From Centroscyllium fabricii (Eukaryota): 64,000 bases of DNA. This document shows positions 13,148-49,567 of the stretch, in pieces. The first letter of the stretch is position 1. Each line of letters opens with the position of its first letter. The notes below the pieces were generated by a model. It was not told the DNA's origin, searched no databases, and saw only the letters and a list, made by a program, of their open reading frames with translations. The translations under genes and the position numbers were made by a program. Location of the stretch: assembly GCA_051313645.2 (NCBI GenBank), contig JBNRSN020000005.1:312728001-312792000 (forward strand). Direction: 5' to 3'.

Positions 13148-14154
13148 TATAATGAAATGCAAACGTAAAAAATATCTTTAGATCAACTGTTCCTGAACAG
13201 TCAGAAGCACTATAACTGTGATAAAAGGAGGAGGATTTTAATTGTCAATTATCCTTGGACTGACCTAATAAATGGATATATGCCCTGCTTCACTCTAGAA
13301 CTGGCTCAATGTTCATCAACATAGTAAATATAACTGGAACAAGACGCTGTTGCTAATAATGGTTCAAGTTAACCTGTACTGTCAAGTTAACCTGTACTGC
13401 ATTTATTAACAGATAGATTCTGCCATTGAGAAGCCTCAAATCAGAGCCGACAGCTTGTTCTTAACAAAAGGCTTTTATTTACAAGAGACAGAACCATGCC
13501 CTCGGTGAGCCCGCCTGGAATGAGAGATGAGTGGGCGGAGCATTCTCCTTTATACTAGTACCCAGAGGCGGGGTCAGCCGGTACAGGTCCTTGCAGAAAT
13601 GTACAGATATTAACAGGTATATTAACCCAAACTATATACAATAATCGCACAGTGTGAACCACACTAAAAGGTTCATCACATTCACCCCTTCCTTAAAAAC
13701 AAGTCCCGCGGGGCGAATATCAGCACTGTGTTATCAGTCTTAGTGGGGGTTTAACAGTCCGAGTAGTTCTGCGAGGCAGTGTCGGTTCTGGCGAAGAAGC
13801 GGGAGCAGTCATAATCGGAAAAGACGCTGACGGGGCTCCCGACGTGAACAGGGACTCCACCGGTGGAAGAGGTACCTCAGGCACAGGAAGATCTGGTGGA
13901 GGTGTAGCAGCCGCCGGAAGAGTAGGCTGAGCAACATGATGAGCTCTGTCGTGCATTGTGAGTGACGAGGGCCCCGATGTAGTGTGCGCAGGTGAATGGA
14001 AAGACGGCCCCTGTTGTGAAAATGCGACCTGGGAGGGCAAGGGCTCCGCCAACGACTCTAAGTGAACGTCTCCAGCGGGCGCAAGGTCTCTAATCGAGAC
14101 AGTATCCTCACGCCCGTCTGGGTACTCCACGTAGGCATACTGAGGGTTGGCATG

Positions 14155-14443
14155 TGACGTATCGTCAATATCTTCGATTAAAAGAGTCGACGAGTAGTTG
14201 CCGAAACTAAAGGCTTTTAATTGCTAAGAACGGAGCTACTCTCCAGACGAACTACAGTACAGGAATGAAGGAGCCTCGGTCAGATCTCACCTATAACGGG
14301 GCCTCACCTGGGGGAGGAGTTGGAGGTGTGGCTGACCTGGCTCCCAACAGTGTCACAGTATACAGGGCTGTGCCTAACATCAGCACAGCCCATCATTAGC
14401 CATAATGGTACAGTGGTATGGTAGACATACAATGGTTACCACA
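14155..14443 (-). mobile_element. Solo LTR inserted in the integrase region of Gypsy 1
   Basis: TG...CA ends; TSD GCATG at 14150-14154 and 14444-14448; similar to the LTRs of Gypsy 3. Confidence 0.9.
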
Positions 14444-16689
14444 GCATGCAGCAGGCGCACACGTTTAACAAGAGGGTCCGTCTTGTGTCCACGGACATGC
14501 CGTCGAAGCAGAACCGGCCCCGGGTTGGTAAGCCACGTCGGCAGAGACGTCCCCGAAGTCGATTTCCGGGGGAAAGAGAAGAGTTTCTCGTGAGGCGTGC
14601 AACTGGTGGCTGTACACAAGAGGGAACGGGTAGCGTGGAGCGAATCCTGGAGGACCTGCTGCCAGTGGGAGTTTGGAAGGCCTTTGGATCGAAGGGCCAG
14701 GGTGATGGCCTTCCAGATGGTCCCATTACAACGTTCTACCTGACCGTTCCCCCGGGGTTGTAACTGGTCGTTCTGCTCGAGGCAACCCCCCGCACGAGCA
14801 GAAAATGACGCAGTTCGTCACTCATAAATGAGGACCCCCGGTCGCTGAGTATGAAGCCGGGAAGGCCGAAGATGGCGAATAGCGTGATAAAATGCTTTAT
14901 CACTGTTGCACTCGTCATCTCTGGGCATGGGAATGCAAAAGGGAAACGGGAGAACTCGTCGACCACAGTGAGAATGTACGAGTTACGGTTGGTAGAGGGG
15001 AGGGGACCTTTGAAGTCCACACTCAGGCGCTCGAATGGTGGCCTTGATGAGGTGCGCCCTGTCAGGCCTGTAAAACTGGGGCTTGCACTCAGCACAGACA
15101 GGGCACTCCTGCGTCATCGCCTTGATCTCCGCAATGGAATAAGGGAGATTGCGTGATTTGACGAAGTGAGCGAGCCTGGTGACCCCCGGGTGGCAGAGAT
15201 TAGCGTGGAGGGTGTTCCGACTACCCGACTGGGCACTGGCACACATTCCTCGGGACAGGCCGTCCGGGGGGACGTTAAGCTTCCCTGGCCGGTACAGAAT
15301 GTCGTACTCAAAAGTGGAGAGTTCGATCCGCCACCTGAGGATCTTGTCATTCTTGATTTTACCCCTCTGTTTATGGTGGAACATAAACGCTACTTACCGC
15401 TGGTCAGTAAGAAGGGTAAATCGTTTACCGGTCAAATAGTGGCGCCAGTGGCGCACTGCTTCCACGATTGCTTGGGCCTCCTTTTCCACTGAAGAGTGGT
15501 GGACTTCAGGGCCCTGTAGGGTACCGGAGAAGAAAGCGACGGGCCTGCCTGCCTGGTTAAGGGTGGCGGCCAGGGCGAAGACTGAGGCGTCGCTTTCGAC
15601 CTGGAAGGGGAGAGATTCATCAATGGCGTGCATGGTTGCCTTGATGATGTCTTGCTTGATATGCGAAAAGGCAATTTGGGCCTCTAACGGGAGCGGGAAG
15701 GAGGTAGCCCTGAGGAGAGGCTGGGCCTTATCAGCATAATGGGGAACCCATTGTGCATAGTAAGAGAAAAACCCCAGGCATCTCCTCAAAGATTTGGGGG
15801 AGTGCGGTAGAGGCAGCTCCTGAAGGGGGCGCATACGTTTGGGATCGGGGCCGAGGACCCCGTTCTCAATTACGTAGCCGAGGATAGCCAACTGGTTAGT
15901 GTTGAAAACGCACTTATCCTCATTGTAAGTGAGGTTCAGACGCTGGGCCGTACGGAGAAACCTGTCCAAATTGGCATCATGATTTTGCTGGTCATGGCCG
16001 CAGGTCGTGACATTGTCCAAATACAGGAATGTGGCCTGCAAATGATACTGGTCAACCATTCGCGGCTGCTGACCGTGAGAGGAGGCAGGGGACCGCTGTA
16101 CGCCATCGTCATGCTCTGCAGATGGCACTGGAAAACCAGGCCAAGCAACACAGGGGCGCAGAGCTGTGGGAGGACGTACAGTGGAAAGTTGCGGTATGTC
16201 GTCCCCTTCACAGTAATGGTGACTGTACAGCAGCCGATGACGTCCACAGTCTGGGACTCGGAGGGAAGGGAGATTTTACGATGTGTGGGCCTAACCCTGA
16301 GGGAATAACGGCACACCGTATCAGGGTGTATGAAGCTCTCCGTACTCCCAGTGTCGAACACACATCGGATGAGGTGCCCCTCTACCCGGATGGGCATCAT
16401 CGATAACATGAGAGACTGGTTGAGGGCCGTAGAGGCAAGTGTGGTGTGCGCGCTGGGGCCCTTGTGCAATGCAGAGTCCGCGGGTGATGGCGGCGCCCGT
16501 GATTCGCACGCGGCGGGCCACGGTGGCGTTTTGGTGAGTCGCCGAGAAAGCCGTTGGGAGGACCGAAGGGCTCGTGGCGCACAAGCGCCAGAATGCTGAA
16601 TTGCTCTGGAGTTGCCTGTTGCTGCTGCCAGAATCATTGTAGTTTCTTCTAATCTACCTGTTACTTCTGCAGCCTGTATAGGTAAGTTT

Positions 16690-17160
16690 GTCCTATACAA
16701 AGATGGCGGTGTCACGTGATGGGGCTGGGCCGCTGCTGCCGGGATGCGAGTTGTCCTATACAAAGATGGCGGCGTCACGTGATGGGGCATGGCCGTTGCT
16801 GCCGGGATGCGATTTGCCCCACACAAAGATGGCGGCGTCACGTGATGGGGCAGGGCCGCTGTTGCCGTGATGCAGGAAGATGGCGACGTCATGTGATGGG
16901 GTGTGGCCGTTGCTGCCGGGATGAACGACGGTGGCGGCATCACGTGATGGGGCGGGTCCTCTGCTGCCGAGATGCGAGTTGCCCGCATCAAAGATGGCGG
17001 CGCCCTGTGTGCCGCTGCTGCCAGGAGGCCCGACGGCGCCCACGTTTCACGCCGAAACGCCAATGAAGAAGAAGGCCGCGCCCCCAAAGATGGTCGAGTG
17101 CGGGGAACGACCGTGGAGAAAGACGCCCGCGCCCCCAAAGATGGCGGAGCACGGGAAACG
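16690..17160. repeat. Degenerate tandem repeats (about 50-63 bp) between gag and protease of Gypsy 1
   Basis: Recurring AAGATGGCGGCGTCACGTGATGGGGC; encodes HHVTPPS repeats in ORF 15936-17459. Confidence 0.85.
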
Positions 17161-18188
17161 ACGTTGGGAGGCCGCATCTGAGGCAAGGTAGGTCTCAATT
17201 GTTCTGAGGGCCGCTGTTGGGGGGCGCTAGGTACCTGAAGCCTCTCTGTGGCGTGGAATTCACAGGCTGCTGCCGTTTTCCTTGCTGATTCCGGGGCCGA
17301 CCGGCCGACCTTCGCAAAATGGCCCTTCTGGCCTTTGCTGGGCAGGAGCTTCGTGGATGGCGTTTCTGGCCACAAAAAAAGCATTTCAGAGGTGCTGGCT
17401 GTCCAGATGGCGCTGTGGCCGCCACAGTCGTCGTCGAGGGCGTCGAGCGCGAGTCCCAAGGCCCAGGGGAAACTGCGTGGGAGCCGTGCCCCGTGTACGA
17501 ATCCAGGCTCCGGAGGGCCCCATCCACCGCGTTGGAAAGCTTCACCGCCTCATTCAGGGACAAATTATCCTGCTCGAGCAGGCGGGTGCGAGCTGGGGCC
17601 GATCTGATGCCTGCCACATAGGCATCGCGGACAAGGAGGTCCATGTGCTCCTGGGCGTTAACAGGGGTGCATCCGCAGTGCAGAATGAGAGCTTGAAGAG
17701 CCTCCAGGTACTCCTCATTCGACTCACCATGCTGTTGCCTCTGCGTGGCGAGTAGATGGCGAGCATAGACGGCGTTGACTGGCTGGAGGTATCGAGCCTT
17801 CAGTAGCTCCATCGTTGTGTGGCGACACGCCCACCAAAGGCATCGAATCCGCCTCGGGAGTACTGCGGGGCACAGCCCCGCCCATCGGGTGACGTGATGA
17901 CATCACCGCGACTTCCGGCGTGATGACGTCACCGGGACTTCCGGCGTGATGACGTCACCAACCGCGGGCACTTTAAATAAGCCTGCTCCAGGTGGATCAG
18001 TCTCTTTCCTACCTGGCCATGCAATGTAATAAACAAGTGTTTTCTGTCCTACTGGCTCCCGCGTGGTTCTTCAGGCCTGCATGCACTACAGTGGTGACCC
18101 CGAAATTGGAACGTCTTCCAAGAGAACAGAAATGAAGCAGTTGCTGCAGGACTGAGGGCCAAGCTGCCTCAGAGCACTTCCAACCTAC

Positions 18189-18929
18189 ATGCCTTCAGGA
18201 AGCCAAGCTGCACGACCTCAAAGACTGGGCCAGAACTCCGGCCACCGATTAACTCTACTGGAGTTTTGGGAGCTACGCCCAGCGGCCTGGGTCCTGTGTA
18301 TCGAAACCAGCTGCCGCATCCATGGCGTCCAGGGGGATGATCGCTACGACCTGCTCTTCTCGGCCCTACCGCAGACCACGGTCGATCGGATGTGGCCGAC
18401 GTTACAGCGTGCACCAGCAGCAGGCAGGTACGAATTCCTTAAGGCCGCGCTGCTTAAAAAATTCACCCCCTCCCAATTTGAGTGCGACTGCGAGCTCATC
18501 AACCTCCCCGAACTCGGGGACGCAGACCCATCGGACCTTTGGGCCCAAATGGAAGCACTGAACTCAGACCCAGCCTCCATCAAGCGCACCTTGTTCCTCC
18601 TCAAACTGCCCCCCTCCGTCAGACCGGCTCTGATGGCCCTCTGCCACTGCAGCGGAGAACAGCTGGCTGAGGAGGCCGACAAGCTCATGACGGCTGAGCG
18701 CTCCCGCTCCGCCACGTGCGAGCCCGCTGCTACGGCAGCCGAGCCCCGCTACGCGCACCCCAGGTCCGACCCCAGGCCTGAACACAGGCCAACGCGACCC
18801 GCAAAAGGCCGCGCACATCGGGCACCGGCTGGTGCTACTACCACACCCGGTTTGAATCCAAAGCGCAACGCTGCGTCCAGCCCTGCACTTTCAAACCCCA
18901 GCCCGGCTCAAGCCCCACCATGTCTGTAG
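18189..18929 (+). CDS. gag: Gag of the nested CsRn1-like element (frameshifted before the CHCC motif)
   Basis: [12 protein letters not shown] ... [10 protein letters not shown]; the CHCC motif lies in another frame. Confidence 0.8.
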
Positions 18930-19011
18930 GCCACTCTGGAGCACTGCTCTACGTCACAGATGCGGCACAGGCCTCCGGTTCCTCTGCGACACAGGCGCGC
19001 AGCACGGCATT

Positions 19012-22011
19012 GTGCCAGCCTCCACTGCAGAAGCCAAACAAGGCACCCGGGGCCCGCCACTCGAAGCCGCAAACGGCTCCGAAATAAAGACGTACGGCAC
19101 CCGCAAGCTCACCATCAAGCTAGCAGGCCACACGTACCACTGGGACTTCATCACCGCCCAGGTCAAACTACCCCTCCTCGGGGCAGATATCCTCTGCGCC
19201 CACGGCCTCCTGGTCGACATGACCCGGCGCCGACTGGTCAACATACACAACATGTCGACCATCCCATGCTCCACAGGGCCGGCACGCCAGGCCCACGCAG
19301 CGGCACACTGCCGAGCCCGTAACTCCGACACGTACGGCACGCTCCTCGCGGAGTTCCCAGCCCTCACCAACCCCACCTTCACAGCCCGCACGGCCAAACA
19401 TGGGGTGGAGCATTTCATCACCACCACTGGCCCTCCCGTCCATGCCCACGCCCGCAGGCTGGACCCGGCCAAACTGGAGATCGCGCGTACCGAGTTCCGC
19501 ACCATGGAACAACTCGGCATAATCCACCGCTCCAACAGCCCCTGGGCCTCCCCACTCCACATCGCCCCCAAGCCGGGCGGTGGTTGGCGCCCCTGCGGAG
19601 ACTACCGCCGCCTCAACAACGCCACCACCCCAGACAGGTACCCCGTACCCCACATCCAAGATTTCTCCACCAGGCTAGCGGGCTGCACGATCTTCTCTAA
19701 GATCGACCTGGTACGGGGCTACCACCAGGTACCAGTGCACCCGGTGGATGTCCCTAAGACAGCCGTCATCACCCCTTTCGGACTGTTCGAATTCCTCCGA
19801 ATGCCCTTCGGACTTAAAAACGCGGCCCAGGCCTTCCAACGCCTCATGGACTCAGACCTACGGGACTTGCAGTTCATGTTCGTCTACCTAGACGACATCC
19901 TCGTGGCCAGCACCTCCCCCCAGGAACACCTCCTCCATCTCAGGACCCTGTTCCAACGCCTGACCGAACACGGTCTCATATTAAGCCCCTCTAAATGCCA
20001 ATTTGGCCTCGAGACGATCGACTTCCTCGGCCACCGCATTTCCCAAACCGGGGCCATACCCCTGCCCTCCAAGGTGCAGGCGGTCCAGGAATTCCCCCGC
20101 CCGCACTCCATCAAGGGGCTGCAGGAATTCCTAGGGATGGTTAATTTTTATAACCGCTTCATCCCAGGAGCAGCCGTTCTCATGGCACCCCTTTACCAGG
20201 CCACACGCGGGCAGTCCAACAAAACTGCGGTCGAGTGGACGGCCGAAGCCACCACCGCCTTCACCGCAACCAAAACCGCCCTGGCCAACGCCACGCTCCT
20301 AGCCCACCCTAGGCCCAACGCCAGAGTGGCCCTCACCACCGACGCCTCCGACCACGCTGTCGGAGCGGTCTTTGAGCAGTGGACCGGCAACTCCTGGCAA
20401 CCCCTGGTCTTTTTCAGCCGGCAACTTCGGCCCCCAGAGGTCAAGTACAGCGCCTTCGATAGGGAGCTACTCGCTCTCTACCTCGCAGTGCGCCACTTCC
20501 GCTTCCTCTTGGAGGGCCGCCATTTCACAGCATTCGTTGATCACAAGCCACTCGTGTCCGCAATAGCTAAGATCGCCGAACCCTGGTCGGCCAGGCAGCA
20601 GCGCCAGCTCGCGGCCGTGTCGGAATTTACCACCGACATACAGCACATCGCCGGCCGCGACAACGTGGTTGCTGACTGCCTGTCACGTCCCGCCATCAAC
20701 GCCGTACAAACGGCGGTCGACTACGCCAAACTGGCAACCGACCAACTAACAGACCCAGACCTGCTCGACCCAGCTACCAACCTCCCCGGCCTGCACTTGG
20801 CCAGCGTAGCACACGGGCCCACAGCCACTGCGGTCTGCTGCGACGTCTCCCTCCCGCAGCCCAGACCCATCGTCCCCCACGCATGGAGGCGACACATTTT
20901 CCACACACTCCATGGCCTGTCCCACCCTGGCACCCGCGCGTCCACCAAGCTGATTTCGGCACGTTTCGTCTGGCGCGGCCTGCGCAAGGATGTCCGCGCC
21001 TGGACCAACGCCTGCACTGCCTGCCAGCGCGCCAAGGTGCACAAGCACATCAAGGCACCGCTGGAAACGTTCACCATACCAGCTAGACGCTTCGACCACG
21101 TCCACATCGACCTGGTCGGACCACTACCGCCATCACGGGGACACACACACATCATGACCATGGTCGACCGCATCACTCGCTGGCCAGAAGCGGTCCCACT
21201 CGTCGCTACCAGCACCAAGGACCTGGCCAGGGCTTTCATCGCCACCTGGGTCGCGCGTTTCGGCGTACCCACCGACATCACGTCGGACAGAGGCCCCCAA
21301 TTCACGTCGACACTATGGGCGACCATCGCCCGCGACCTTGGGGTAACCCTACACCGAAACACCGCTTACCACCCACAGTCCAACGGACTCTGCAAACGGT
21401 TCCACCGCTCCATCAAAGCATCCCTGCGGGCCAGTTTTAAGGACTCAACTTGGACAGACCGCCTGCCCTGGGTAATGCTCGGCCTACGCACAGCGGCCAA
21501 AGAAGACCTGCACGCCTCAGCAGCGGAACTCGTCTACGGCCAAACTCTAACCGTGCCAGGCGAGTTCCTCGCAGAGCCAAACGCTCCCTGGTCAGCAGAC
21601 CAATACCTGAAGGACTTTAACAACCAGGCACGAGCGTTCAAACCGCTACCGGTGGCCCGGCACGGAGAGCCGGCAGCACGTGTACCGGACGGCATTAAAA
21701 AGGGCAAATATGTGTTTCTCCGCCACGACGCACATCGATCGCCACTACAGCCACCGTATGATGGACTGTACAGAGTGCTTCGGGCGGGAGCTAAAGCTTT
21801 CGAACTGAAAATGGCCAACAGGACTGAAACCGTCTCAATAGACCGGCTGAAGCCGGCACACGTAATAGCGGGTGAGACAACAGTCCCCGCGCAGCCACCA
21901 AAACGCGGACGCCCTCCCGCACCAAAAAATGCCCACACTCCACCGCAGAACAAGGAGCAGCGCACGACACGTGCCGGCCGCATCATCCGGCCACCTCAAC
22001 GCCTCTCATGA
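19012..22011 (+). CDS. pol: Pol (end of protease, RT, RNase H, integrase), 999 aa without stops
   Basis: LCDTGA in frame just upstream; [22 protein letters not shown]-CxxC and integrase core (IDLVGP, SDRGPQF). The usual integrase Glu reads K (NGLCKRFH). Confidence 0.95.
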
Positions 22012-23204
22012 GACTCATTTTTTATTTTTACTTTATTCTCCCTTACAGCATAAGACTCTTTTATATTTTATTTTATTCTCCCGTACAGATTCTGGGGGGG
22101 GAGCTGTGTGGCGACACGCCCACCAAAGGCATCGAATCCGCCTCGGGAGTACTGCGGGGCATAGCCCCGCCCATCGGGTGACGTGATGACGTCACCGCGA
22201 CTTCCGGCGTGATGTCGTCACCAGGACATCCGGCGTGATGACGTCACCAACCGCGGGCACTTTAAATAAGCCTGCTCCAGGTGGATCAGTCTCTTTCCTA
22301 CCTGGCCATGCAATGTAATAAACAAGTGTTTTCTGTCCTACTGGCTCCCGCGTGGTTCTTCAGGCCTGCATGCACTACAGTTGCATCGTATTCCGTGGCA
22401 CTCTTGATGATGGAATACACCCTGCCACTCACGCAGGAGACCAGGACTCGTCTCTTGTGCGTGTCGCTGACTCCGGCCACCACAAGGAACGATTCAAAAC
22501 AGCTCAGCCAGTGTTCAAAATCATTGGACACATTCGGTGCCTGGGGGTTGAGGTCGAGAGTTTGGGGTTTTAGGTCTGTCTTCCAACTCTCAGAAGTTGC
22601 TGGCTGTTGCTGATTCATTTTAAAAATTCTTGTAAATAAAATTGAGAAGTCTCAAATCAGAGCCGACAGCTTGTTCTTAACAAAAGGCTTTTATTTACAA
22701 GAGACAGAACCGTGCCCTCGGTGAGCCCGCCCGGAATGAGAGATGAGTGGGTGGAGCATTCTCCTTTATACTAGTACCCAGAGGCGGGGTCAGCCGGTAC
22801 AGGTCCTTGCAGAAATGTACAGATATTAACAGGTATATTAACCCAAACTATATACAATAATCGCACAGTGTGAACCACACTAAAAGGTTCATCACAGCCA
22901 TGCAGTGCTTACATGAGAAGGCAGGCACTGGGTGCAGAGGGCTGCAGAATTTGGCGAGCAGGCCTTGCTTCCTGGGTTGCTGTTCTGCAGTCTGCTTCAT
23001 TTAGTGCGCTGAGGTGCACCTTCCTATTTTGTACCTTAGCTTCATTAAGGCCGCAGATTTGGTGCATAACTATTTAAGGAAATGTCTAGTTCAATTAGGT
23101 GGCTTTTTCCACCAGGCTTGTTTGTTTTACCTTGTGCATCTACTTGGAATGAGAGTAAGGGAAGCTCCATGTGAAAAATAGTCCTTAAAGCGCCTCAGAC
23201 TTTT

Positions 23205-26970: not shown

Positions 26971-27365
26971 CCTATGTTGTGGGGAAGAGAGGTCAGGTTA
27001 TCAAGGTTAGGAATGACTTTTTAAAAATTCTTTTGACATTTGTAGTGTGACAGGTGGTTAAAATTCACAATCAGGCTCTGTATAGAAGATTCCAGTTTTG
27101 CTGATATGCTTTCTGTTTTGCCAGTGGTTAAATTACTCAAAGCCACAGATTTCCGAGAGTTGTCCATTGGTGTTTCGTTACATAATCTTGATCAGTTTCC
27201 AGCTGCAAGTTAATGATTAACTGATGAATAGCACAAATGTGTGCGTGTATAGATCTATATATGTAACAACAGATAGGTAGGTTTGTAACACATATATAAA
27301 AATAAACATGCTATTTGCTATGCAGAACTGGCCATGCTGTTCTGCGGCTTTCGTCAGCCTATGCT

Positions 27366-30300
27366 CCCAGGAATACCTGTGCTATCAGGGGCAATCCCAG
27401 GAATACCTGTGCTATCAGGGGCAATCCCAGGAATACCTGTGCTATCAGGGGCAATCCCAGGAATACCTGTGCTATCAGGGGCAATTCCAGGATTACCTGT
27501 GCTATCAGGGGCAATCGCAGGAATACCTGTGCTATCAGGGGCAATCGCAGGAATACCTGTGCTATCAGGGGCAATCCCATGAATACCTGTGCTATCAGGG
27601 GCAATTCCAGGAATACCTGTGTTATCAGAGCAATCCCAGTAATACCCGTGCGATCAGGGCAATCCCAGGAATACCTGTGTTATCAGAGCAATCCCAGTAA
27701 TACCCGTGCGATCAGGGCCAATCCCAGGAATACCTGTGTTATCACAGCAATTCCAGGATTACCTGTGCTATCAGGGGCAATCCCAGGAATACCTGTGCTA
27801 TCAGGGGCAATCCCAGGAATACCTGTGTAATCAGGGCAATCCCAGGAATACCCGTGTTATCAGGGGCAATCCCAGGAATACCTGTACTATCACGGCAATC
27901 CCAGGAATACCCGTGCGATCAGGGGCAATCCCAGGAATACCTGTGTTATCAGAGCAATTCCTGGAATACCTGTGTTATCAGCGGCAATCCCAGGAATACC
28001 TGTGTTATCAGCGGCAATCACAGGAATACCTGTGTTATCAGAGCCAATCCCAGGAATACCTGTGCTATCAGGGAAATCCCAGGAATACCCGTGCAATCAG
28101 GGGCAATCACAGGAATACCTGTGCTATCAGGGGCAATCCCAGTGTGGTAAACCACTCTCTGTATATATATGTATATATTACTGTAATCACCTTTAACCAT
28201 GTTGTATAATAGTTCTCTGTGTGTGGTTACCTGGACATGCCCATGCTGGCCCTGCCTGTGACTCCTCCCTCCCAGGACCAGGTACATAAGCGGCCGTCTC
28301 CCTTCCCCAGCCATTCCTGGGGACGGTCGACTAGCTGGTGCATGTCCACCTTTAGCTAATAAAAGCCGATTGTTTCACCTCTTAATATCTCGTCTCTGAG
28401 GTCGTTAATTCGGTAACAATTTTATTAGCTAAAGGTGGACTTGCACCAGCTAGTCGACCGTCCCCAGGAATGCTAATAAAATTGTTACCCGGTTCACCCA
28501 GTTAGACGCGTATCCCCTCCCCCGTATAGCGGACATGGTAAATCAGATCGCGCAGTTTCGGGTCTTCTCGACTATAAATCTGAAGTCCGCATATCACCAG
28601 CTCCCCATCCGCCCAGAGGACCGTCTCTATACTGCCTTCGAGGCTGACGGCCGCCTCTATCACTTCCTCAGGGTTCCGTTTGGCGTCACCAATGGGGTCT
28701 CGGTCTTCCAAAGGGAGATGGACCGAATGGTCGATCAGTACGGGCTGCGGGCCACCTTCCCGTATCTCGATAACGTGACCATCTGCGGCCACGACCAGCA
28801 GGACCACGACGCCAACCTCCAGAAATTTCTCCACACCGCCAAAACACTAAACCTGACCTATAACATGGAAAAATGTGTGTTCAGGACCACCTGCCTCGCC
28901 ATCCTCGGCAGTGTTGTGGAGAATGGGGTCATCGGTCCCGACCCGGACCGCATGTGCCCCCTCCAGGAGCTCCCCCTCCCCCACTCCCTCAAGGCCCTCA
29001 AAAGGTGCCTGGGGTTCTTCGTCTATTATGCCCAGTGGGTCCCCAACTATGCGGACAAAGCCCGCCCACTACTTAAATCAACCTCATTCCCCCTGTCAGC
29101 AGATGCCCGCACGGCGTTCTGCGGCATAAAGGACAACATCGCAAAGGCGACGATGCACGCCGTGGACGAGACCGTCCCGTTCCAGGTCGAGAGCGATGCA
29201 TTGGACTTTGCCCTGGCCGCCACACTCAACCAGGCGGGCAGACCCGTGGCCTTCTTCTCACGCACCCTCCAGGGCCCCGAGACCCGTCACTCTTCCGTTG
29301 AGAAGGAGGGCCAGGCCATTGTTGAAGCAGTGCGACACTGGAAGCACTACCTGGCCGACAAACGATTTACCCTGCTGACTGACCAACGCTCAGTCGCTTT
29401 TATGTTCAACAACAAAGAGCGGGGTAAAATCAAGAACGACAATATACTGAGGTGGAGAATTGAGCTCTCCACTTTCAATTATGATATCTTGTACCTGCCC
29501 GGGAAATTCAATGAGCCCCCAGATGCCCTATCATGCGGTACATGTGCCAGCGCACAAGTGGACCGTCTCCAAACCCTGCACAATGACCTCTGCCACCCGG
29601 GGGTCACCAGGTTGGTCCACTTTGTGAAGTCCCGCAACCTCCCCTACTCCATCGAGGAGGTCAAGACCATGACCAGGAACTGCCAGGTCTGTGCGGAGTG
29701 CAAGCCGCACTTCTTTTGGCCAGACCGGGCGCACCTGATCAAGGCCACCCGCCCCTTTGAGCGACTCAGTGTCGATTTTAAAGGGCCCCTCCCCTCGTCC
29801 AACAGAAACGTGTACTTTTTCAATGTCATTGACGAGTACTCGCGTTTCCCCTTCGCCATCCCCTGCCCGGACATGACCTCTGCCACAGTCATCAAGGCCC
29901 TCCATAGCATTTTCTCCCTGTTCGGCTACCCCAGCTACATCCATAGCGACTGGGGGGCCTCTTTCATGAGTGACGAGCTGCGTCAGTTTCTGCTCGCCAA
30001 AGGCATCGCTACTAGCAGGACTACCAGCTACAACCCCCGGGGGAACGGATAGGTAGAGAGGGAGAACGCCACCATCTGGAAGGCCATCCTGTTAGCCCTA
30101 CGGTCTAAAGGCCTCCCAGTCTCCCGCTGGCAGGATGTCCTCCCCGAAGCGCTCCACTCCATCCGGTCACTCCTGTGTACGGCCACTAACGCCACCCCTC
30201 ACGAGCGACTTTTTACCTTCCCTAGGAAGTCGGCTTCCGGGACCTCGCTGCCGTCATGGCTATCGTCCCCAGGACCAGTCCTACTCCGGAGGCACGTGAG

Positions 30301-31431
30301 GGGCCACAAGTCGGACCCCCTGGTCGAACGGGTCCACCTCCTGCACGCCAATCCCCAGTACGCCTACGTGGCATACCCTGACGGGAGGGAGGACACAGTG
30401 TCCATCAAGGACCTGGCACCAGCGGGTGCCCCCGAGACCAGCCCTGCCCAACAGCCCGCGCCTGCCCACCACCCCCCCGGGCCACCGGCACCAAGGTACG
30501 TCGCTCAGCACGAGGCTCCAGCACCACGGTACGCCCACCCAGCACCTGCAGGCAGCACAGCATGGCCCCCGGCATGGCTCCATAGTGCACGCGCCCAAGA
30601 GTCGGACGATGAATGGGAGAGCGCGTCGCTAACCGTTACCGCAAGGGCACCGACGAGGAACCGAACGCCCCCGCCGACCCCGCTACAACCAACTCAACCG
30701 ACAACAGTACGTCCGCCGACCCCACCACCAGCGGTGCGCCGATCAACCAGGCAAACCAGGCCACCCGACAGGCTGGACTTGTAATAATAATAAAAAGAAC
30801 TGTCGCATTCACCCCGCCGGACTTTCGTTTTAAAGAAGGGGTGAATGTGGTAAAGCACTCTCTGTATATATATGTATATATTACTGTAATCACCTTTAAC
30901 CATGTTGTATAATAGTTCTCTGTGTGTGGTTACCTGGACATGCCCATGCTGGCCCCGCCTGTGACTCCTCCCTCCCAGGACCAGGTACATAAGCGGCCGT
31001 CTCCCTTCCCCCAGCCATTCCTGGGGACGGTCGACTAGCTGGTGCATGTCCACCTTTAGCTAATAAAAGCCGATTGTTTCACCTCTTAATATCTCGTCTC
31101 CGAGGTCGTTAATTCAGTAACACCCAGGAATACCTGTGTTATCAGGGGCAAGCCCAGGAATACCTGTGTTATCAGAGCCAATCCCAGGAATACCTGTGTT
31201 ATCAGAGCCAATCCCAGGAATACCTGTGCTATCAGAGAAATCCCAGGAATACCCCTGCGATCAGGGGCAATCCCAGGAATACCCGTGCGATCAGGGGCAA
31301 TCCCAGGAATACCTGTGTTATCAGAGCCAATCCCAGGAATACCTGTGCTATCAGGGGCAAGCCCAGGAATACCTGTGCTGTCAGGGACAATCCCAGGAAT
31401 ACCTGTGCTATCACCAGCAGCCCCAGGAATA
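27366..31431. repeat. 30-bp minisatellite (27366-28142 and 31123-31431) split by Gypsy 2
   Basis: Unit CCCAGGAATACCTGTGCTATCAGGGGCAAT with 29-bp variants; roughly 26 plus 10 units. Confidence 0.97.
28143..31122 (+). mobile_element. Gypsy LTR retrotransposon 2, gag-protease deleted
   Basis: LTRs 28143-28418 and 30846-31122; TSD CCCAG; PPT AAAGAAGGGGTGAA; ORF 28535-30052 (RT YLDN, RNase H, integrase) continues past a stop to 30784. Confidence 0.95.
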
Positions 31432-37308: not shown

Positions 37309-38583
37309 ATGGGAGGCCTTTTTTATCTTCCCTTCTTGGCGTTAGAGGATTTCCAGCAGCAGAGGTGCCAGCAACAGATCCAGCACCAACAACAGCAACA
37401 GCAACACCAGCAACAGCAGCACCAGCAACAGCAGCCACAGGCTCCTGCTCACCCTCCGGAGGCCGCACATGCCAGAGGGGGCCAGCGCATGGAAGGCCGT
37501 CGGCGCAGGAGATACCTCCCAAACAGGGTGTACAGACGCAGGGTCAGCTATCTCAATACGACTGAGCGGCAGTGTCAAAGGCGGCTTCAACTTCCCCAAC
37601 AGGTAGTGACTGACATCTGCGCTATGGTACAGCGAACCCTGGAGCTCAGAGCACCAGGTAGACACTCCTTACCAGTGGCTGTCAAAGTCACCACCGCTCT
37701 CAACTTTTTCACCTCAAGCTCATTCTAGGGGTCAGCAGCAGACATCAGTGGCATTTCCCAATCGGCCGCATACACTTGCATCACGTAGGTAACCGATGCC
37801 CTCTTTGCCCTCGCGCACAATCACATCCATTTCACCAGGGATCTGGCTAGTGTGAGGGCGCAAGAGATTGGATTTGCTCGTCTGGCAGGCTTTCCAAGGG
37901 TGCAAGGCATCATTGACTGCAGACATGTGGCCCTTAAGGCACCCCATGCCAACCCAGTTATTTTTGTCAACCGCAAGGGCTTGCACTCCCTTAACGTTCA
38001 ACTGATGTGTGACCACAAGAAGGAGATTATGCATGTTTGTGCCAAGTACCCAGGCAGTTACCATGACTCTTTCATACTGCATCAGTCTACTGTGCCTCCG
38101 CTCTTCAGTCCGCCAGGCGAACTTCAGGGATGGCTACTTGGAGACAAGGGATATCCCCTGAGGACTTGGCTAATGACGCTGTTGAGTAGGCCAGGCAACG
38201 AAGCAGAGGAGTGCTACAACTCCAGCCACAGTTCCACCAGATGCATTATCGAGCAAACCATCGGCTTGCTGAAGATGCGATTCAGATGCCTGGATAGATC
38301 AGGTGGAGCCCTCCAGTACTCAGCAGCTAGGATCTCCAAAATGGTCGTGGTTTGCGATGCGCTTCACAACATGGCACAGCGGCATGGCTTGCAGATTCCT
38401 GAGGACCAACTGGCTCCTCGTATACCCTCCTCAGATGATGATGATGATGATAATGAGGAGGAAGAGAAAGAGGACGATGAGAACGAGCATCCTGAAGAGG
38501 CCCATCAACCAGCGCCGGCTGTGCATCAGAACATTGCTGCCCGGGATGCAAGGAACGCACTTATACTGGCCAGATTTGGTTAG
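37309..38583 (+). pseudogene. Harbinger DDE transposase with in-frame stops near 37726 and 37786
   Basis: [39 protein letters not shown]; Gln-rich N-terminus and acidic tail. Confidence 0.93.
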
Positions 38584-38893
38584 CCTTGTGCAGCAAAGAC
38601 TTTAGCCTCACTGCTTCTTCCCTGAGCATTGACAATGGCTGAACCCTGCAGATCCCCAGCTATTTCAGCAGCAGCCTCACAACTGCAAGTAAATCTAAGC
38701 CCTCACAGTAAAAGCGCCATTCGCGCAATGACACACGCCAGAACTGCAGCGGTTGCCATTAGAATTTTTATGTACAATAACCAACTGATGGCCTGGACAC
38801 ATTAAACAACTTTCACCCAAGTGACAACCCCTGTGACTATTTGTGCTTTATTTTCCTCTTACGAGTGCTCCTACGTAGCGGTTCCCCGATGGC

Positions 38894-40980
38894 TTAAGCA
38901 GATGTGGAGGCCCCTTGCTCACTTTCCTGCTGCTCCTGTCTCAGCACCTTTGGCGGGCGTCCTCTGGGGTGGCAGGCCTGTGAGGGCTCGCCAGCAGTCT
39001 GCTCCTCCTGAGGTTGTGCAGGAGTGCAGACCTCTATCTCATCTGGGTGCAGACTCTGGCAGGGCTCTGACCGAGGGCTCTGCAGTGGCATGGAAGTGTG
39101 AGCACTTGGAGAGGAGCCCCCACTTCCTGAAAGTCTGCCACCAACTTCCCTCTCATGGGTCAGGTCCCCCTCAGCGCTTGCAAGTGGCTTGAGAGCACCT
39201 TGCTGCACATCAGTGGGGCCACGGGGACCCGAATCTGCACTGGCAGTCCTACTCAGAAGGACTTCCATGAAGGGCTGGTTTCTCTGTTCAATAGATGCCC
39301 ATCGCTCCTCAAGAGATGTCATTCTATTTTGAACACTGACCATGTTTTCCATTCCCCGGCGACTAACCTCCTCCATGGCCATAGCCCTTCTCTCCTCTAC
39401 GGCAGCCATCATCTCCTCTACGGCAGCCAGCCTTGCCATGGAGGCAGCAATCATTTCCATGTAGGTTGCCATCCTTTCCATGTTGATCCGTTGATGCTCC
39501 ATTGACTCCACAAAGGCTCTGCTCATGTTCGCTATGGACTCCTCCATTCGCTCCACACTTGCAGCGACCCTGGAGACAAAACCTGCCAGAGACCCCGGCA
39601 TCTGGTCATGGAGTCCCATCACCTCTGCTCTAGCAGATGGACCCAGAGGCTGAGGGTCGACATGCAGCTGAGCTGAGCTGGCAGAGTCCTGCGCCCTCCG
39701 ACTAGGACTTTCCACTGCTGTCCCTGTCTCCACAATCTGCTGATGCTCACTTGTGAGCTGTGATACACCTGGTGACAACACTACTCTATGTCGCGAAGGT
39801 CCCACCGAGGTGTGAGTGTCTGCGCTGGTGCTGGGTGTGCTGAATACTGCTGACACTGCACCCTCAGAGGTTGGATGTTCGTCTGAGGAGTCGCTCTCCT
39901 CAGCCTCTTCCTCCTCCACTGTGGGGGCAGGGGTGCTCGATGGTCCTGTGGGGGAGTAAAGGAAAGAGTTAGAGATGTGATGGCAATGTCACATGCACCT
40001 TGCACTTTGCAGATGAGCATAAGTTCATATGATGTAGCCTCAGAATCATTATCAGTGACTCATGCAATATCAATGTGAAAGATGGAAAACTATTCTGTCA
40101 CCAGCTTGCGGGGATGCACCTGTCTCTCCGGCTCCAACTTCCGCAGCAGCATCATCCCCGGTAATTTGCTTGGCCGCCGCCTCCTCCTAGTTCAACTACC
40201 GATGGGAGCCCTCCTCCGATCCTGGCTTGCTCTCTTTTATTGTGAGCTCTCTTCTCCTACAATGAGGGAGACAAGAGGAGGTGGAGTGAGAATTAAGGAG
40301 TGAGTGTAGAGATTGCCTAGCATAGATACTTAGAGGGAGAGAAAGATGGAGTGAGGTGGCAAGACCAAGGGCCCTCCCTGTGTGTTGTCAGTTGTGTTCA
40401 TAGCAGCAGAGTGATAGGGAGTGTGAGGGCTGCATAGTGGAATAGTTCTGTGAATGTGAGCATAGAGAGAAAGGGAATGGGTAAGGGTGCATGGATGTCA
40501 GTGTCAAGTGGGATGTGAAGGAAGGGATTGCTAAAGCTGAGTGCTGCTGAGCAAAGGCAAAGGGGATCAGATTGAGGGTGATGGAAACCTCAAACTTACT
40601 TTTCCCGTTCGACGTAGGTCATTGAAGTGCTTGCGGCACTGGAGCCAAGTCCGAGTACTCATTGCCATCGCGCTGACATTCTCGGAGATCTCCAGCCAGG
40701 CCTCCCTCATTACATGATGTAATGAGCGCTGCTCACTTCACCTGAGGAAGGAGCAGCGCTCCAAAAGCTTGTGATTTCAACTAAAACTGTTGGACTATAA
40801 CCTGGTGTTGTGTGACTTCTTACATTTGTCCCTCATTACACTTGCAGGCCACCTCTTTCCCGATGCAGGGAACAGAACTTCTCGGTGGGCCCTCGCCCCG
40901 TCGACAAGAGCCTGCAGTGAGGCATCATCAAATTTGCGCGAGGGTCTGGCCCTCCCTCTGGATGCTGGCTCCTGGTCCAT
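38894..40980 (-). pseudogene. Harbinger Myb/SANT-like accessory protein, three predicted exons (about 40980-40600, 40256-40102, 39945-38894)
   Basis: RKFDDASLQALVD ... EVLFP, then REAWLEI ... RTWLQCRKHFNDL; canonical GT-AG boundaries (gtaagt, cattgtag, ccccacag); exon 1 is broken by an insertion. Confidence 0.85.
40715..40829 (+). mobile_element. Short Penelope terminal fragment with hammerhead-like core, inserted in the Myb exon
   Basis: 11-bp TSD CCCTCATTACA; CTGAGGAAGGAGCAGCGCTCCAAAAGCTTGTG (core mutated). Confidence 0.8.
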
Positions 40981-41353: not shown

Positions 41354-41635
41354 TGTGGTAACCGTCATTACCATCTGTATATAGTTGTGGGTTCATCGGC
41401 GGGCCTTGTACACTGTGGGGTCACATATGGATGTATTCACCTGTATACTGCATGTAAGGCCAGGTCAGCCACACCTCTAACTCCTCCCCTCAGGTGGGAG
41501 CTTATAGGTGAGGGCCGCCCTGCCCCCGCTCATTCTCGCCTTGAACTCGACTGGAGACTAGCTCCATTATAAGTTAATAAAAGCCTATAGTTAAGGTAAC
41601 TACTCGTCTTTCTTGTCTTGATTGACGATACGTCA
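41354..41635 (+). mobile_element. Solo LTR related to Gypsy 3
   Basis: TGTGGTAACC...TACGTCA; TSD CGGGG; contains TTAATAAAAGCC. Confidence 0.92.
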
Positions 41636-44952: not shown

Positions 44953-47900
44953 TGAGGTATTGTCAATTAAAACGCAAAGACGAGTAGTTACCCAAACTAT
45001 AGGCTTTTATTAACTAACAATGGAGCTGGTCTCCTGATGAGTTCAAGGCGAGAGTGAGCGGGGGCAGGGCAGCCCTCACCTATATGCTCCGACCTGAGGG
45101 GAGGAGTTAGGGGTGTGGCTGACCTGGCCTAACATACAATACCAGGTGAGAACATCAACTATATACAATGATAATTACACGGTTACCACATACACCCCTT
45201 CTTTAAAAACAAGTCTGGCGGGGTGAACGTGCCTTCTGGTGAGAGGAAGAAAGAAAAAAAAACTCAATATGTCCATTAGCAATCAAATTGCGTTATTAGT
45301 CTCTCCGGCGGTCGCATCTGCCTGGGGGACCGCTGGGGTGCCGGTAATGGTGGTGCCGGTTGCAGGGCCGGGATTGAGCTCTCCACCAATGGTGCTGGCG
45401 GTGCAGTGTCCGATCCCAGGTCGTCAATCGGTGGTGTTGAGGGCCCCGGTGTGTATATGTATGGGGGCCAGTATTCGGTGGGTGGTGGCTGGTCGGGCTG
45501 AGGCTCGACTGGGGGTTCTGCCCTAGTGCTCCCAGCGGGCGCCAGGTCCCTGATCGACACTGTATCCGCGCGCCCGTCCGGGAATGCCACGTAAGCGTAT
45601 TGCAGGTTGACGTGGAGCAGGTGCACCCGTTCCACCAGGGGGTCAGTCTTGTGGCCGCGGACGTGCTTCCTAAACAACACCGGCCACTGCGCTGTGAGCC
45701 ACAGCGGGAGTGCTGTCCCCGAAGTCGACTTCCTGGGGAAGGAAAACAACAGGTCATGAGGTGTGGAGTTAGTGACGGTACACAACAGAGAGCGCATGGC
45801 ATGGAGCGCGTCTGGGAGGACCTCCTGCCAGCGGGAAACTGGAAGGCCTCTGGACTTCAGGCCCAGGTTGACCGCCTTCCAGATGGTCCCGTTCTCCCTT
45901 TCTACCTGGCCGTTCCCCCGGGGGTTGTAACTGGTCGTTCTGCTTGAGTCAACCCCTTTCTGAAGCAGAAACTGACGCAGTTCGTCGCTCATGAACGACG
46001 ACCCCCGGTCGCTATGGATGTAGCTGGGCAGACCGAAAATGGCGAACAGCGTGGTGAAGTGTTTGATCACCGTTGCGCTCGTCATGTCTGGGCAGGGGAA
46101 GCGTGAGAACTCGTCTATGACCGTGAGGAAATACGAGTTGCGGTCAGTGGAGGGGAGGGGGCCTTTCAAGTCCACCCTCAGGCGTTCAAAGGGGCGGGTG
46201 GCCTTGATTACGTGCGCCGTGTCTGGCCTGTAAAATTGGGGTTTGCACTCGGCACAGACAGGGCACTCTTTGGTCATAGCCTTTATCTCCGTGATGGAGT
46301 AGGGGAGGCTACGGGATTTGATGAAGTGGGCGAGTCTGGTGACACCCGGGTGGCAGAGGCGATCGTGGAGGGCCTTCAGCCGGTCAAGCTGGGCGCTGGC
46401 GCACGTTCCCCTGGACAGTGCGTCCGGGGGTTCGTTGAGCTTGCCTGGACGGTAAAGAATGTCATACTCGTAAGTCGAGAGTTTGATCCACCACCGCAGG
46501 ATCTTATCATTCTTGATCTTACCCCGTTGTTTATTATTAAACATAAATGCCACCGACCATTGGTCAGTGAGCAGGGTAAAACGCTTGCCGGCCAGGTAAT
46601 GACGCCAGTAGCGCACTGCCTCCACGATGGCCTGGGCCTCCTTTTCCACCACTGAGTGGCGAGTTTCGGGTCCCTGTAGGGTCCGGGAGAAAAACGCTAT
46701 GGGCTTGCCTGCCTGGTTCAGTGTGGCGGCAAGGGTGAAGTCCGAAGCGTCACTCTCCACCTGGAAGGGGATGGACTCAGCAACGGCGTGCATGGTCGCC
46801 TTGATGATGTCTTCCTTGATCCGAGTAAATGCCGTTTGGGCTTCTTCCGAGAGGGGGGAAGACATCGGCCTTGAGGAGATGTCTGGCCTTATCCGCGTAC
46901 TGGGGGACCCATTGCGCGTAATAAGAAAAGAACCCTAGACATCTCCTCAGGGCTTTGGGGTTGTGAGGTAAGGGCAGCTGTTGCAAGGGGCGCATACACT
47001 GTGGGTCGGGGCCGAGGACCCCGTTTTCCACCACGTATCCGAGGATAGCGAGCCGATCCGTACTAAAGACACACTTGTCTTTATTGTACGTTAGGTCCAG
47101 CCGTTTCGCCGTGTGCAGGAATTTGGCGAGGTTGGCATCGTGGTCCTGCTGGTCATGGCCGCAGATGGTCACGTTGTCCAAGTAGGGGAAGGTGGCCTGC
47201 AACCCGTTCTGGTCAACCATGCGGTCCATCTCCCTCTGGAACACCGACACCCCGTTGGTCACACCAACGGTGACCCGGAGGAAGTGGAAGAGCCGGCCGT
47301 TCGCCTCGAAGGCGGTGTACTGGTGGTCGACTTTCCGGATGGGGAGTTGGTGATACGCCGACTTGAGGTCGATTGTGGAAAAGACCTTGTACTGGGCGAT
47401 CTGGTTTACCATATCCGAGATGCGGGGGAGGGGGGAGGCGTCGAGCCCGGTGTAGCGGTTAATCGTCTGGCTATAGTCGATGACCATGCGCAGTTTCTCG
47501 CCCGTCTTAACCACTACGACCTGGGCCCGCCAGGGGCTGGTGCTGGCCTCAATGATCCCTTCTTTCAGCATGCACTCAACCTCCGACCTGATGAACACCT
47601 GGTCCCCTGCACTGTAACGTCGACTTTTGGTAGCAATGGGCTTGCATTTAGGGTTGAGATTGGCGAACAGTGCGGGGGGGTCGACTTTAAATGTGGACAG
47701 GCCGCAAGTTGAGTTCCGCGTTAAGTTGGGATTCTCCCGGCTACTGACGGTGAGGGGGGCCAGGGTTTCACCGAAATCCATCGTCACGCTCTTCAGGTGA
47801 CACTGGAAATCCAGTCCCAGTAAGACTGGGGCGCACAGCTGCTGGAGTACGTACAACTTAAAGTTGCGGTAAATGCGGTCCCTGATCGTGAGCGTGATGC

Positions 47901-49567
47901 TGCAGTAGCCGGTGACGTCCGCCGTGTGGGACTTTGAGGCAAGGGAGACTTGGTAGTGCGTGGGCTGGGTCTGCAGCGCGTAGCGCCGCACTGTGTCGGG
48001 ATGTATAACGCTCTCTGTGCTACCGGTGTCGAACAGGCAGTTAGTGGCGTGCCCGTCCACCTTAATCGCCATCATGGAGTTGGACAAGGTGTGCGGCCTA
48101 GCCTGATCGACGGTGGCTGAGGCCGAAGTGTATGTGTGTGAGTGGGTGCCCTCCGCTAGCTGGGGCCCCGGCCGCGGCAGTTGGCAAGATGACCGCTCAG
48201 AAGATGGCGGCGCTGGCGATGCGCCCGTGTCCGGCTGCTGTGGACAAGATGGCGGCGCCCGTGGTTCGCACGCGGCCGACCGCTGTGGATAAGATGGCGG
48301 CGCCCGTGGTTCACACGTGGCTGACCGCAGTGGACAAGATGGCGGCGCCAGGGGGTCGCACATGGCCGGTCGCGGTCGCCTTTGGAGTGGCAGCGCCTGT
48401 GCCGCACGCGCGGCCGTCCTCCGCCGTACAGTTAAAAGGGATTGAGGCGCCCGCGATTTACCCCCGGCTGACCACTGCTGGGTTGCGCTGCAACACCGTA
48501 CCTGGAGCCATGGAGTGGCATCGCTGTTCTCACTGTTGGGTCTGGAGGTGGAGGCTGGGCTGGACTTGCACACCTTCGCGTAGTGCCCCTTCTTCGCGCA
48601 CCGCTCACAGGTCGCATTCTTCGCGGGGCACTGCGCCCGCGGGTGCTTCCCTTGGCCGCAGAAGTAGCATCTGTGCCCCACCGGTGTCTTCGCAGTCGCC
48701 GCTGCCATCATGGGGGTCTCGGCCTGTCGCTGTGTCGCCCGGGGGTCAGGGATACCGTGTGAGCCGTGGTCTCCGTACGCGTCTAGCTTTCGGAGCGCTC
48801 CATCCACCGCATTAGAGAGGGTTATTGCGGACTCGAGCGACAGTGTGTCCTGCTCCAGTAGCCGCTGGTGGGCCTGGCTGGACCTGAGTCCAGACACATA
48901 GGCATCTCGGATTAGGAGGTTCGCTTCTTCCTCCGCCGTCCTTGCCTGGCAGTCGCAGGCCCGTGCGAGGGCTTGAAGTGCTAGTAGGAACTGTTCGTTC
49001 GACTCACCGAGTCGTTGTCTTCTGGTCGCCAGAACATGCCTGGCATAGACCGAGTGGGCCGGGCGCATGTAGCAGTCCTTTCATTTCTTGACCGCTGCCT
49101 CGTAAGTGTTGAGGCCACGGATAAAAGAATACACCCGGCCGCTGATCCGTGATGAGAGTACCTGGAGTTTGTCCTCATCACTCGTAGCCTTTACGGCCTT
49201 CATGTCGGCCTCGACCAGGCCAAACCAGTGTTCGAAGTCGTCAGCAGCATCAGGTGCCTGAGGGTTTATGTCGAGGCGATCCGGTTTCACTGCGTTACTC
49301 TCCATGTTTTAAAATGTAGTTAATAAAATTGACGTATCATCAATTAAAACGCAAAGACGAGTAGTTACCCAAACTATAGGCTTTTATTAACTAACAATGG
49401 AGCTGGTCTCCTGATGAGTTCAAGGCGAGAGTGAGCGGGGGCAGGGCAGCCCTCACCTATATGCTCCGACCTGGGGGGAGGAGTTAGGGGTGTGGCTGAC
49501 CTGGCCTAACATACTATACCAGGTGAGAACATCAACTATATACAATGGTAATTACACGGTTACCACA
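44953..49567 (-). mobile_element. Gypsy LTR retrotransposon 3, near full length
   Basis: 238-bp LTRs at 49330-49567 and 44953-45190 (about 6 differences); TSD AGAGA; PPT AAAGAAGGGGTGTA. Confidence 0.96.
45276..49305 (-). pseudogene. gag-pol of Gypsy 3 in three pieces (49081-49305, 46777-49068, 45276-46865)
   Basis: Two CCHC knuckles (CYFCGQGKHPRAQC, CERCAKKGHYAKVC), FDTGS, YLDN, SDASD, integrase with GQVERENG; no chromodomain. Confidence 0.93.

Follow-up and report, generated by a model that had tools for sequence, protein, structure and literature searches.

To our knowledge, self-priming of reverse transcription has been shown experimentally for Tf1 only, and is assumed for its chromovirus kin and for one plant Copia lineage. 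Named Mag elements are known as tRNA-primed. HIV-1 RNase H leaves the last rA, a likeness to the elements described below, which have a one-base spacer and a primer that would end in A. In Tf1, the RNA's first 11 bases pair with the primer site (PBS) and RNase H cuts between bases 11 and 12, according to the available part of PMC7175516. About half of the Tf1 cDNA retains a single-stranded copy of the PBS (PMC11042837, available text). Self-priming of the Tf1/sushi group is treated in the accessible portions of PMC10085805, PMC4600332, PMC6317226 and PMC11042837. For the TAR lineage of plant Ty1/copia elements (Houba, Osr-1), self-priming was predicted from PBS-LTR complementarity (PMC6317226, in the part available). 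Fungal GalEa Copia elements contain a "conserved hairpin site", with no tRNA PBS and a hairpin at the PBS position (PMC5445492, in the part available).

The Gypsy lineage reported here was found in sharks, corals and other animals. As in Tf1 and Tf2 of Schizosaccharomyces pombe and in the Tf1/sushi chromoviruses Tj1, Tosmo and Tcn1, its PBS complements its own LTR and a tRNA site is absent. The Tf1 primer consists of the first 11 nt, whereas the arm of the shark families would end about 50 nt into the RNA, as judged from TATA/Inr motifs and from fossil copies. Also unlike Tf1 are an arm end that is often a poly(A) hexamer, the one-base spacer, the boundary AAA|RCC and two CCHC knuckles, and the chromodomain at the integrase C-terminus, a feature of the Tf1/sushi group, is absent. 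TAR shares self-priming, but belongs to the Copia superfamily without common ancestry with the Gypsy group described here. The GalEa hairpin differs in that both of its arms lie downstream of the LTR and no LTR complement was found (PMC5445492, accessible text). The animal Ty3/Gypsy clades Mag, Cigr-1 and MolGy are likewise short, single-ORF elements of aquatic hosts without a chromodomain, which makes them candidate relatives. The two CCHC knuckles together with the 5-bp TSD are presumably Mag-like.

The preferred reading, to which a probability of about 0.62 is assigned, is that a separate lineage outside the chromoviruses self-primes in the manner of Tf1, by means of a long 5' primer that would be cut at AAA|RCC. 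It is a known mechanism in a new variant, for which the genomic evidence appears unusually direct; the first-pass annotation had proposed a new self-priming system, of which the self-priming is supported and the new principle is not. The literature covered, in the parts available, included PMC3601003, PMC2864245, PMC10886601, PMC6238403, PMC2774666, PMC6934838, PMC5006619, PMC5445492 and bioRxiv 10.1101/2023.10.26.564294, with subscription papers and Repbase notes outside its scope; neither self-priming in an animal Gypsy lineage of this kind nor LTR palindromes were described there. The available text of PMC6238403 and its five supplements contained nothing on the PBS and no sequences with the lineage motif. 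An earlier mention in subscription papers or Repbase is unlikely, though its probability is far from negligible.

Three Gypsy elements and their leaders

The window, i.e. the whole stretch of 64 kb that was analysed, contains the following features.

13427-22896, minus strand: Gypsy 1, whole element; TG...CA LTRs, 5-bp TSD ATGGC
22643-22896, minus strand: 5' LTR of Gypsy 1 (TG...CA), 98% identical to 13427-13680
22764-22770, minus strand: TATA box of Gypsy 1, recognised by motif only, 82 nt before the arm end
22689-22737, minus strand: predicted primer of Gypsy 1, between +1 (Inr-like A, 22737) and the arm end, based on the Inr motif and on 2 of 19 extended copies that stop there
22689-22702, minus strand: LTR arm of Gypsy 1 pairing with the PBS, 3' end AATAAAA; predicted cut 22689/22688
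22643-22688, minus strand: loop of Gypsy 1 from arm to PBS (GCC..., rest of R, U5)
22642 and 22628-22641, minus strand: spacer A and 14-nt PBS of Gypsy 1
22618, minus strand: gag ATG of Gypsy 1
13427-13680 and 13685-13694, minus strand: 3' LTR and polypurine tract of Gypsy 1
17818-22379, plus strand: unrelated Gypsy nested inside Gypsy 1; 4-bp TSD GTTG, TGG primer site at 18092
44953-49567, minus strand: Gypsy 2, whole element; LTRs 49330-49567 and 44953-45190 (TG...CA), 5-bp TSD TCTCT
49317-49432, minus strand: leader of Gypsy 2, with Inr-like A 49432, arm 49382-49393, spacer 49329 and 12-nt PBS 49317-49328
28143-31122, plus strand: Gypsy 3, whole element; TG...CA LTRs, 5-bp TSD CCCAG
28143-28418, plus strand: 5' LTR of Gypsy 3, with TATA-like box 28283-28289, Inr-like A 28313 and arm 28351-28364
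28419-28472, plus strand: spacer A and inverted copy of LTR +52 to +1 in Gypsy 3, reading as a DNA copy of the entire predicted primer
28472-28489, plus strand: inverted PBS start and U5 end of Gypsy 3, then pol; read as a second template jump, with gag-protease missing
30846-31122, plus strand: 3' LTR of Gypsy 3, followed by TSD CCCAG

TG...CA LTRs, a TSD, a polypurine tract and the order protease-RT-RNase H-integrase assign these elements to Ty3/Gypsy, and the best solved-structure match is Ty3 Gag-Pol (E 3.9e-102). The two arms of Gypsy 1 (22628-22641 and 22689-22702) are exact complements over 14 nt, separated by 47 nt, and those of Gypsy 2 (49317-49328 and 49382-49393) over 12 nt. All three LTR arms terminate AATAAAA|GCC. 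The arm end follows the TATA-like box by 82 (Gypsy 1), 82 (Gypsy 2) and 83 nt (Gypsy 3), and the Inr-like A by 49, 51 and 52 nt. On the two strands of the 64 kb taken together, inverted repeats of at least 10 bp in which one arm has AATAAA and the other lies no more than 200 nt away occur exactly three times, namely in Gypsy 1-3. In Markov-shuffled LTR/leader regions the best inverted repeat averaged 6.8 bp, and none of 96 reached 11. The first-pass annotation had described the exact 14-nt complement in Gypsy 1, the AATAAAA-GCC boundary with a single spacer base, the arm end about 49-52 nt past the predicted start, two CCHC knuckles, 5-bp TSDs and the absence of a chromodomain. All of these were found again, the knuckles in Gypsy 2 and in a sister copy of Gypsy 1, and the lack of a chromodomain by Pfam. 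Its statement that Gypsy 2 and Gypsy 3 share the design holds for the 12-nt site of Gypsy 2 and for the Gypsy 3 arm, but the Gypsy 3 copy in the window is abnormal, with a 52-53-nt complement and no gag.

The gag of Gypsy 1 is split by the nested element and its pol is broken. The family is young, with 1095 candidate copies in the genome, the best 40 of them at 99% identity. Among 30 sister copies fetched, 28 were compared for the PBS, which the query contained; it is identical in 27, and the remaining copy has a G-U-compatible change. Tandem repeats of 63/51 nt occupy the gag-protease linker of Gypsy 1 (16697-17009) and are also present in sister copies. A lone LTR at 41414-41635 is related to Gypsy 2 (87%) and has the same arm and AAAA|GCC; a PBS is absent there, and a matching TSD was sought and not found. 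Searches of the 64-kb window with Rfam at the gathering threshold and with ARAGORN gave no matches and no genes, respectively.

The nested Gypsy serves as an internal control of the ordinary type, as its TGG primer site begins one base past its LTR. We take this site to match tRNA-Trp and the element to be of the CsRN1 type. Its RT is about 30% identical to that of Gypsy 3 and forms a long branch in the RT tree, in which it was the only outgroup and from which L196 was left out. Its left end fits the CsRN1 motif of Table 3 in the available part of PMC3601003.

Pairing in relatives of the window elements

Homologs with single gag-pol frames of about 1200 residues and two CCHC knuckles were found in rays, sharks, corals, sea anemone, jellyfish, mussel and nematode. 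The closest named relatives, from catsharks and rays, are 72-80% identical where the query is nearly fully covered, and the DNA thus probably belongs to a cartilaginous fish. The group is compact, most relatives being 50-67% identical to Gypsy 3 over RT-RNase H-integrase, and the knuckle pair is almost invariant in 23 aligned proteins. A chromodomain was found neither in the integrase frames of Gypsy 2 and Gypsy 3 nor in the precomputed Pfam annotation of 120 listed homologs.

Metagenome and genome collections supplied 88 outside loci. A gag profile located a gag start in 42 of them, and 37 of these had at least 130 nt upstream; LTR ends were checked from direct repeats. In 35 of the 37 testable loci the sequence after the LTR forms 10-19 perfect pairs with an arm within the LTR, and 32 of the 35 have an LTR end CA plus one spacer base. 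Pairing is absent in L115 and L122, both of which appear decayed. After removal of 13 near-identical kin, and with the nearer of two duplicated PBS copies used for L077, 25 non-redundant families were counted. All 25 keep pairs at positions -1 to -11, and two to four pair types occur at ten of the eleven positions. The PBS matches its own arm over a mean of 14.8 bp and the arms of other families over a mean of 4.25 bp, with 4 of 600 such comparisons reaching 11. The covariation check that the first-pass annotation had proposed for PBS and R is borne out here by complementarity kept across 25 families that differ in sequence. In every family a single base separates the duplex from the LTR end. 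The arm ends in AAA in 23 families, RCC follows directly in 22 and G stands at -10 in 23; family L104 lacks AAA|RCC. Arm and PBS are 24-68 nt apart, and in computationally folded leaders their pair probability is 0.86-0.92. A second helix, RCC...GGY, of at least 4 bp lies directly past the arm in 19 of 25 families (6.8 expected) and may correspond to one of the extra helices, termed "pretzel", beside the Tf1/sushi primer duplex (PMC10085805, available part). Complementarity, covariation and geometry are established at the level of sequence. The design is real, is shared across the lineage and very probably has a function.

It is scarcely probable that the duplex merely hides the 5' poly(A) signal or aids packaging while a host RNA primes. 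An AATAAA or ATTAAA hexamer is present in the arm of 16 of 25 families, as such a role would suggest, but is missing from the other nine, so that hiding this signal is secondary; the first-pass annotation had proposed the same occlusion, which stands where the arm holds a hexamer but is not the conserved feature. The constant distance of one base between duplex and LTR end also speaks against this explanation, as do the lack of TGG in a genome whose nested Gypsy retains it, and extended copies (see below) that go on with R sequence of the LTR and not with host RNA. Since the pairing is kept with different letters in each family, any host RNA used as primer would need to vary along with each LTR, and a host RNA that tracked the LTR of every family is not credible on this comparison. 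Priming by the element's own R, in whatever form, is highly probable.

Several observations were made beside these counts. Loci L190-L197 are animal retrotransposons on contigs filed under bacterial metagenome-assembled genomes, and probably represent host contamination. In L084 (2786-7200), pol is on the strand opposite to that of gag and the LTRs; this internal inversion is perhaps another product of template switching. In the family made up of L067, L068, L069 and L084 the PBS complement is 13 or 19 nt long, depending on a single polymorphic base. A scan of IMG/VR for the pattern gave 42 hits, none of them related.

Copies with an extended complement

Normal copies of the Gypsy 3 family have a 14-nt PBS, whereas the complement in the window copy runs for 52-53 nt (28420-28472) with one mismatch. 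It ends at the A of the Inr-like CCATTCC, 30 nt past the TATA-like box. The bottom strand reads R (+1 to +52), one T and the complement of U5, an order that corresponds to minus-strand DNA still joined to its primer.

Exact matches to such extended junctions in the 7.2-Gb genome numbered 267 for family 3 (Gypsy 3) and 19 for family 1 (Gypsy 1); reversed-control junction queries in the same genome matched nothing. A search with the LTR only yielded 30 loci: four extended copies (one being that of the window), 11 normal 5' LTRs, eight 3' LTRs and seven solo LTRs. Thirty family 3 loci fetched with the extended query comprised 26 extended and four normal copies; because that query held the 53-nt extension, shorter extensions are under-counted, which favours long over short extensions but not among long ones. 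The complement ends at extension nt 46-57 (+1 being nt 52) in 9 of the 26 and reaches the U3 end in 17, while none ends inside the 160 nt of U3. A donor with microhomology to the copy tail was found for six of the nine stops, and since the next template there shares a few bases with the tail, the true end would be +1 itself or a position a few bases away from it. Donors for L040, L054 and L060 were sought and not found; L040 may be a later SINE insertion. The 19 family 1 loci were selected solely on 18 nt of complement and are free of the 53-nt query bias. Two end exactly at C-1/A+1, six end earlier and 11 run on, with none ending in the next 18 nt; early stops outnumber +1 stops in this less biased set. 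Short contigs of four unlabelled runs, compared with the Gypsy 3 LTR, provided no usable ends or joints, and for Gypsy 1 no RNA data set containing the element was listed.

The 17 long family 3 copies are palindromes of about 500 bp with the order U3-R-U5-A-inverse R-inverse U3. Exact 5-bp TSDs flank seven of them and TSDs with one mismatch two more; L035/L038, L043/L048 and L049/L051 are duplicates or neighbours and not independent. Two palindromes extend beyond U3, cross the polypurine tract and enter internal sequence, L036 for 42 nt and L051 for 844 nt. In L036 (1501-2044, minus strand; G000:C224), the 42 bases consist of the inverse polypurine tract and 3' UTR, with a CA end and an exact 5-bp TSD, and the integrase seems to have used a substitute end. 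L049 and L051 (G000:C822) lie in a tandem array with internal pieces and a period of about 1.33 kb.

The extended copies look like DNA copies of the primer, a likeness to Tf1, whose primer is copied into a single-stranded plus-strand end (PMC11042837, in part). They could also have arisen by fold-back at the DNA level or as assembly chimeras, with the short inverted repeat as seed, and would then carry no information on the primer. Plus-strand DNA that snapped back on its own R would yield palindromes ending at U3, and arms within one palindrome are more alike than those of different palindromes (1.7 vs 3.2 differences, with microsatellite and CpG noise). The palindromes have their own 5-bp TSDs at separate loci, however, so they integrated as such; moreover, +1 is not an end on a DNA template, but nine of 26 copies stop there, none stops in U3 and the same stop recurs in family 1. 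An origin by fold-back or chimerism is judged highly improbable.

The same stops bear on where the RNA starts. With the classical geometry of Tf1, transcription would begin at the arm and the primer would be merely 12-19 nt long. This has its precedent in the available parts of PMC7175516 and PMC10085805, and the families outside the sharks leave the start site unconstrained, a TATA or Inr at a fixed distance having been sought there without success. It is judged very unlikely. The TATA-like boxes of Gypsy 1-3 precede the arm end by 82-83 nt and not by about 45 nt, and fossils accumulate 52 nt from it. An RNA start about 49-52 nt before the arm end is supported by genomic fossils of shark families 1 and 3, the two in which primer length appears constrained; the length of about 50 nt, predicted by the first-pass annotation from TATA/Inr alone, finds support in aberrant copies whose complement ends there. 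The sequences themselves likewise establish that the extension is continuous with R and that the template ended about 52 nt from the arm end.

A further alternative keeps the 5' leader uncut, which would leave longer homology for the transfer, and takes the arm from the 3' end of genomic RNA or of a short R-only transcript, once the R and tail downstream of it had been removed. Most extended copies enter U3 (17 of 26 in family 3, 11 of 19 in family 1), as this alternative would have it, and it directly explains how L036 and L051 pass the polypurine tract, but a primer copy that paired with the 3' R of a second RNA would explain these two equally well. The 5' arm is just 24-68 nt from the PBS and should pair first, and the jumps begin at +1 to +38 and never within U3 (0 of 26), suggesting a template that ended at +1. 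Use of the 3'-end arm is regarded as unlikely; +1 stops with none inside U3 fit the 5' piece better. A cis origin of the primer is favoured here, but a stop at +1 would equally result if a 14-nt primer copy had switched to the 5' end of another RNA, so that 5' piece and 3'-end arm are not fully separable by such data.

Proposed priming and its implications

For the preferred reading, self-priming by a long 5' piece, the following course is proposed. The RNA would start about 49-52 nt before the arm end and its 5' leader would fold during synthesis, the 11-19-nt arm in R pairing with the PBS one base past the LTR. Judging from Tf1, the RT/RNase H of the element is the most likely nuclease for a single cut at AAA|RCC, which would release a capped 5' piece of about 50 nt that primes the minus strand; the whole stretch would head this strand and could be copied into DNA. 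For the first strand transfer, just the 10-30 nt of R past the cut would remain. In the second transfer, plus-strand synthesis would normally use 14 nt of the primer copy. When more is copied, the 3' end may jump by microhomology into the element and give deleted copies such as Gypsy 3 of the window, or it may pair with another R and run through U3, giving LTR palindromes that integrase could insert. Hiding of the poly(A) signal would be a side benefit where the arm contains the hexamer.

A wider version is considered only slightly more probable than its opposite: that tRNA-free priming by a capped fragment of about 50 nt cut at AAA|RCC is animal-wide and independent of Tf1, that over-copying routinely leads to palindromes of about 500 bp that could be a source of hairpin RNA, and that hundreds of such copies map RNA start and primer straight from the genome. 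If true, this would be a second, independent Gypsy case of different geometry, found in sharks, rays, cnidarians, a mussel and a nematode, and RT/RNase H would have been turned repeatedly to cutting an RNA:RNA junction. It would raise the questions of what makes plus-strand synthesis stop after 14 of 50 primer bases when there is no modified tRNA base to do so, and of how strand transfer proceeds on a very short R. Elements of this kind would be beyond silencing by tRNA fragments and would be missed by tRNA-based annotation of the PBS. Fossil copies could provide a general route from genomes to primer identity and start sites.

Some minor features of the window are recorded here. In Gypsy 1-3 the polypurine tract forms a hairpin that ends at the start of the 3' LTR, with an inverted repeat of the form TTCACCCC-like ... 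GGGGTGAA, at 13681-13730, 45191-45240 and 30798-30847, respectively; it is less clear in outside families. Gypsy 3 was inserted into a 30-bp minisatellite, which extends over 27273-28142 and continues past 31122. A fragment of a Harbinger/PIF-type transposase (Pfam DDE_Tnp_4) is located at 37789-39988, facing a second frame on the opposite strand.
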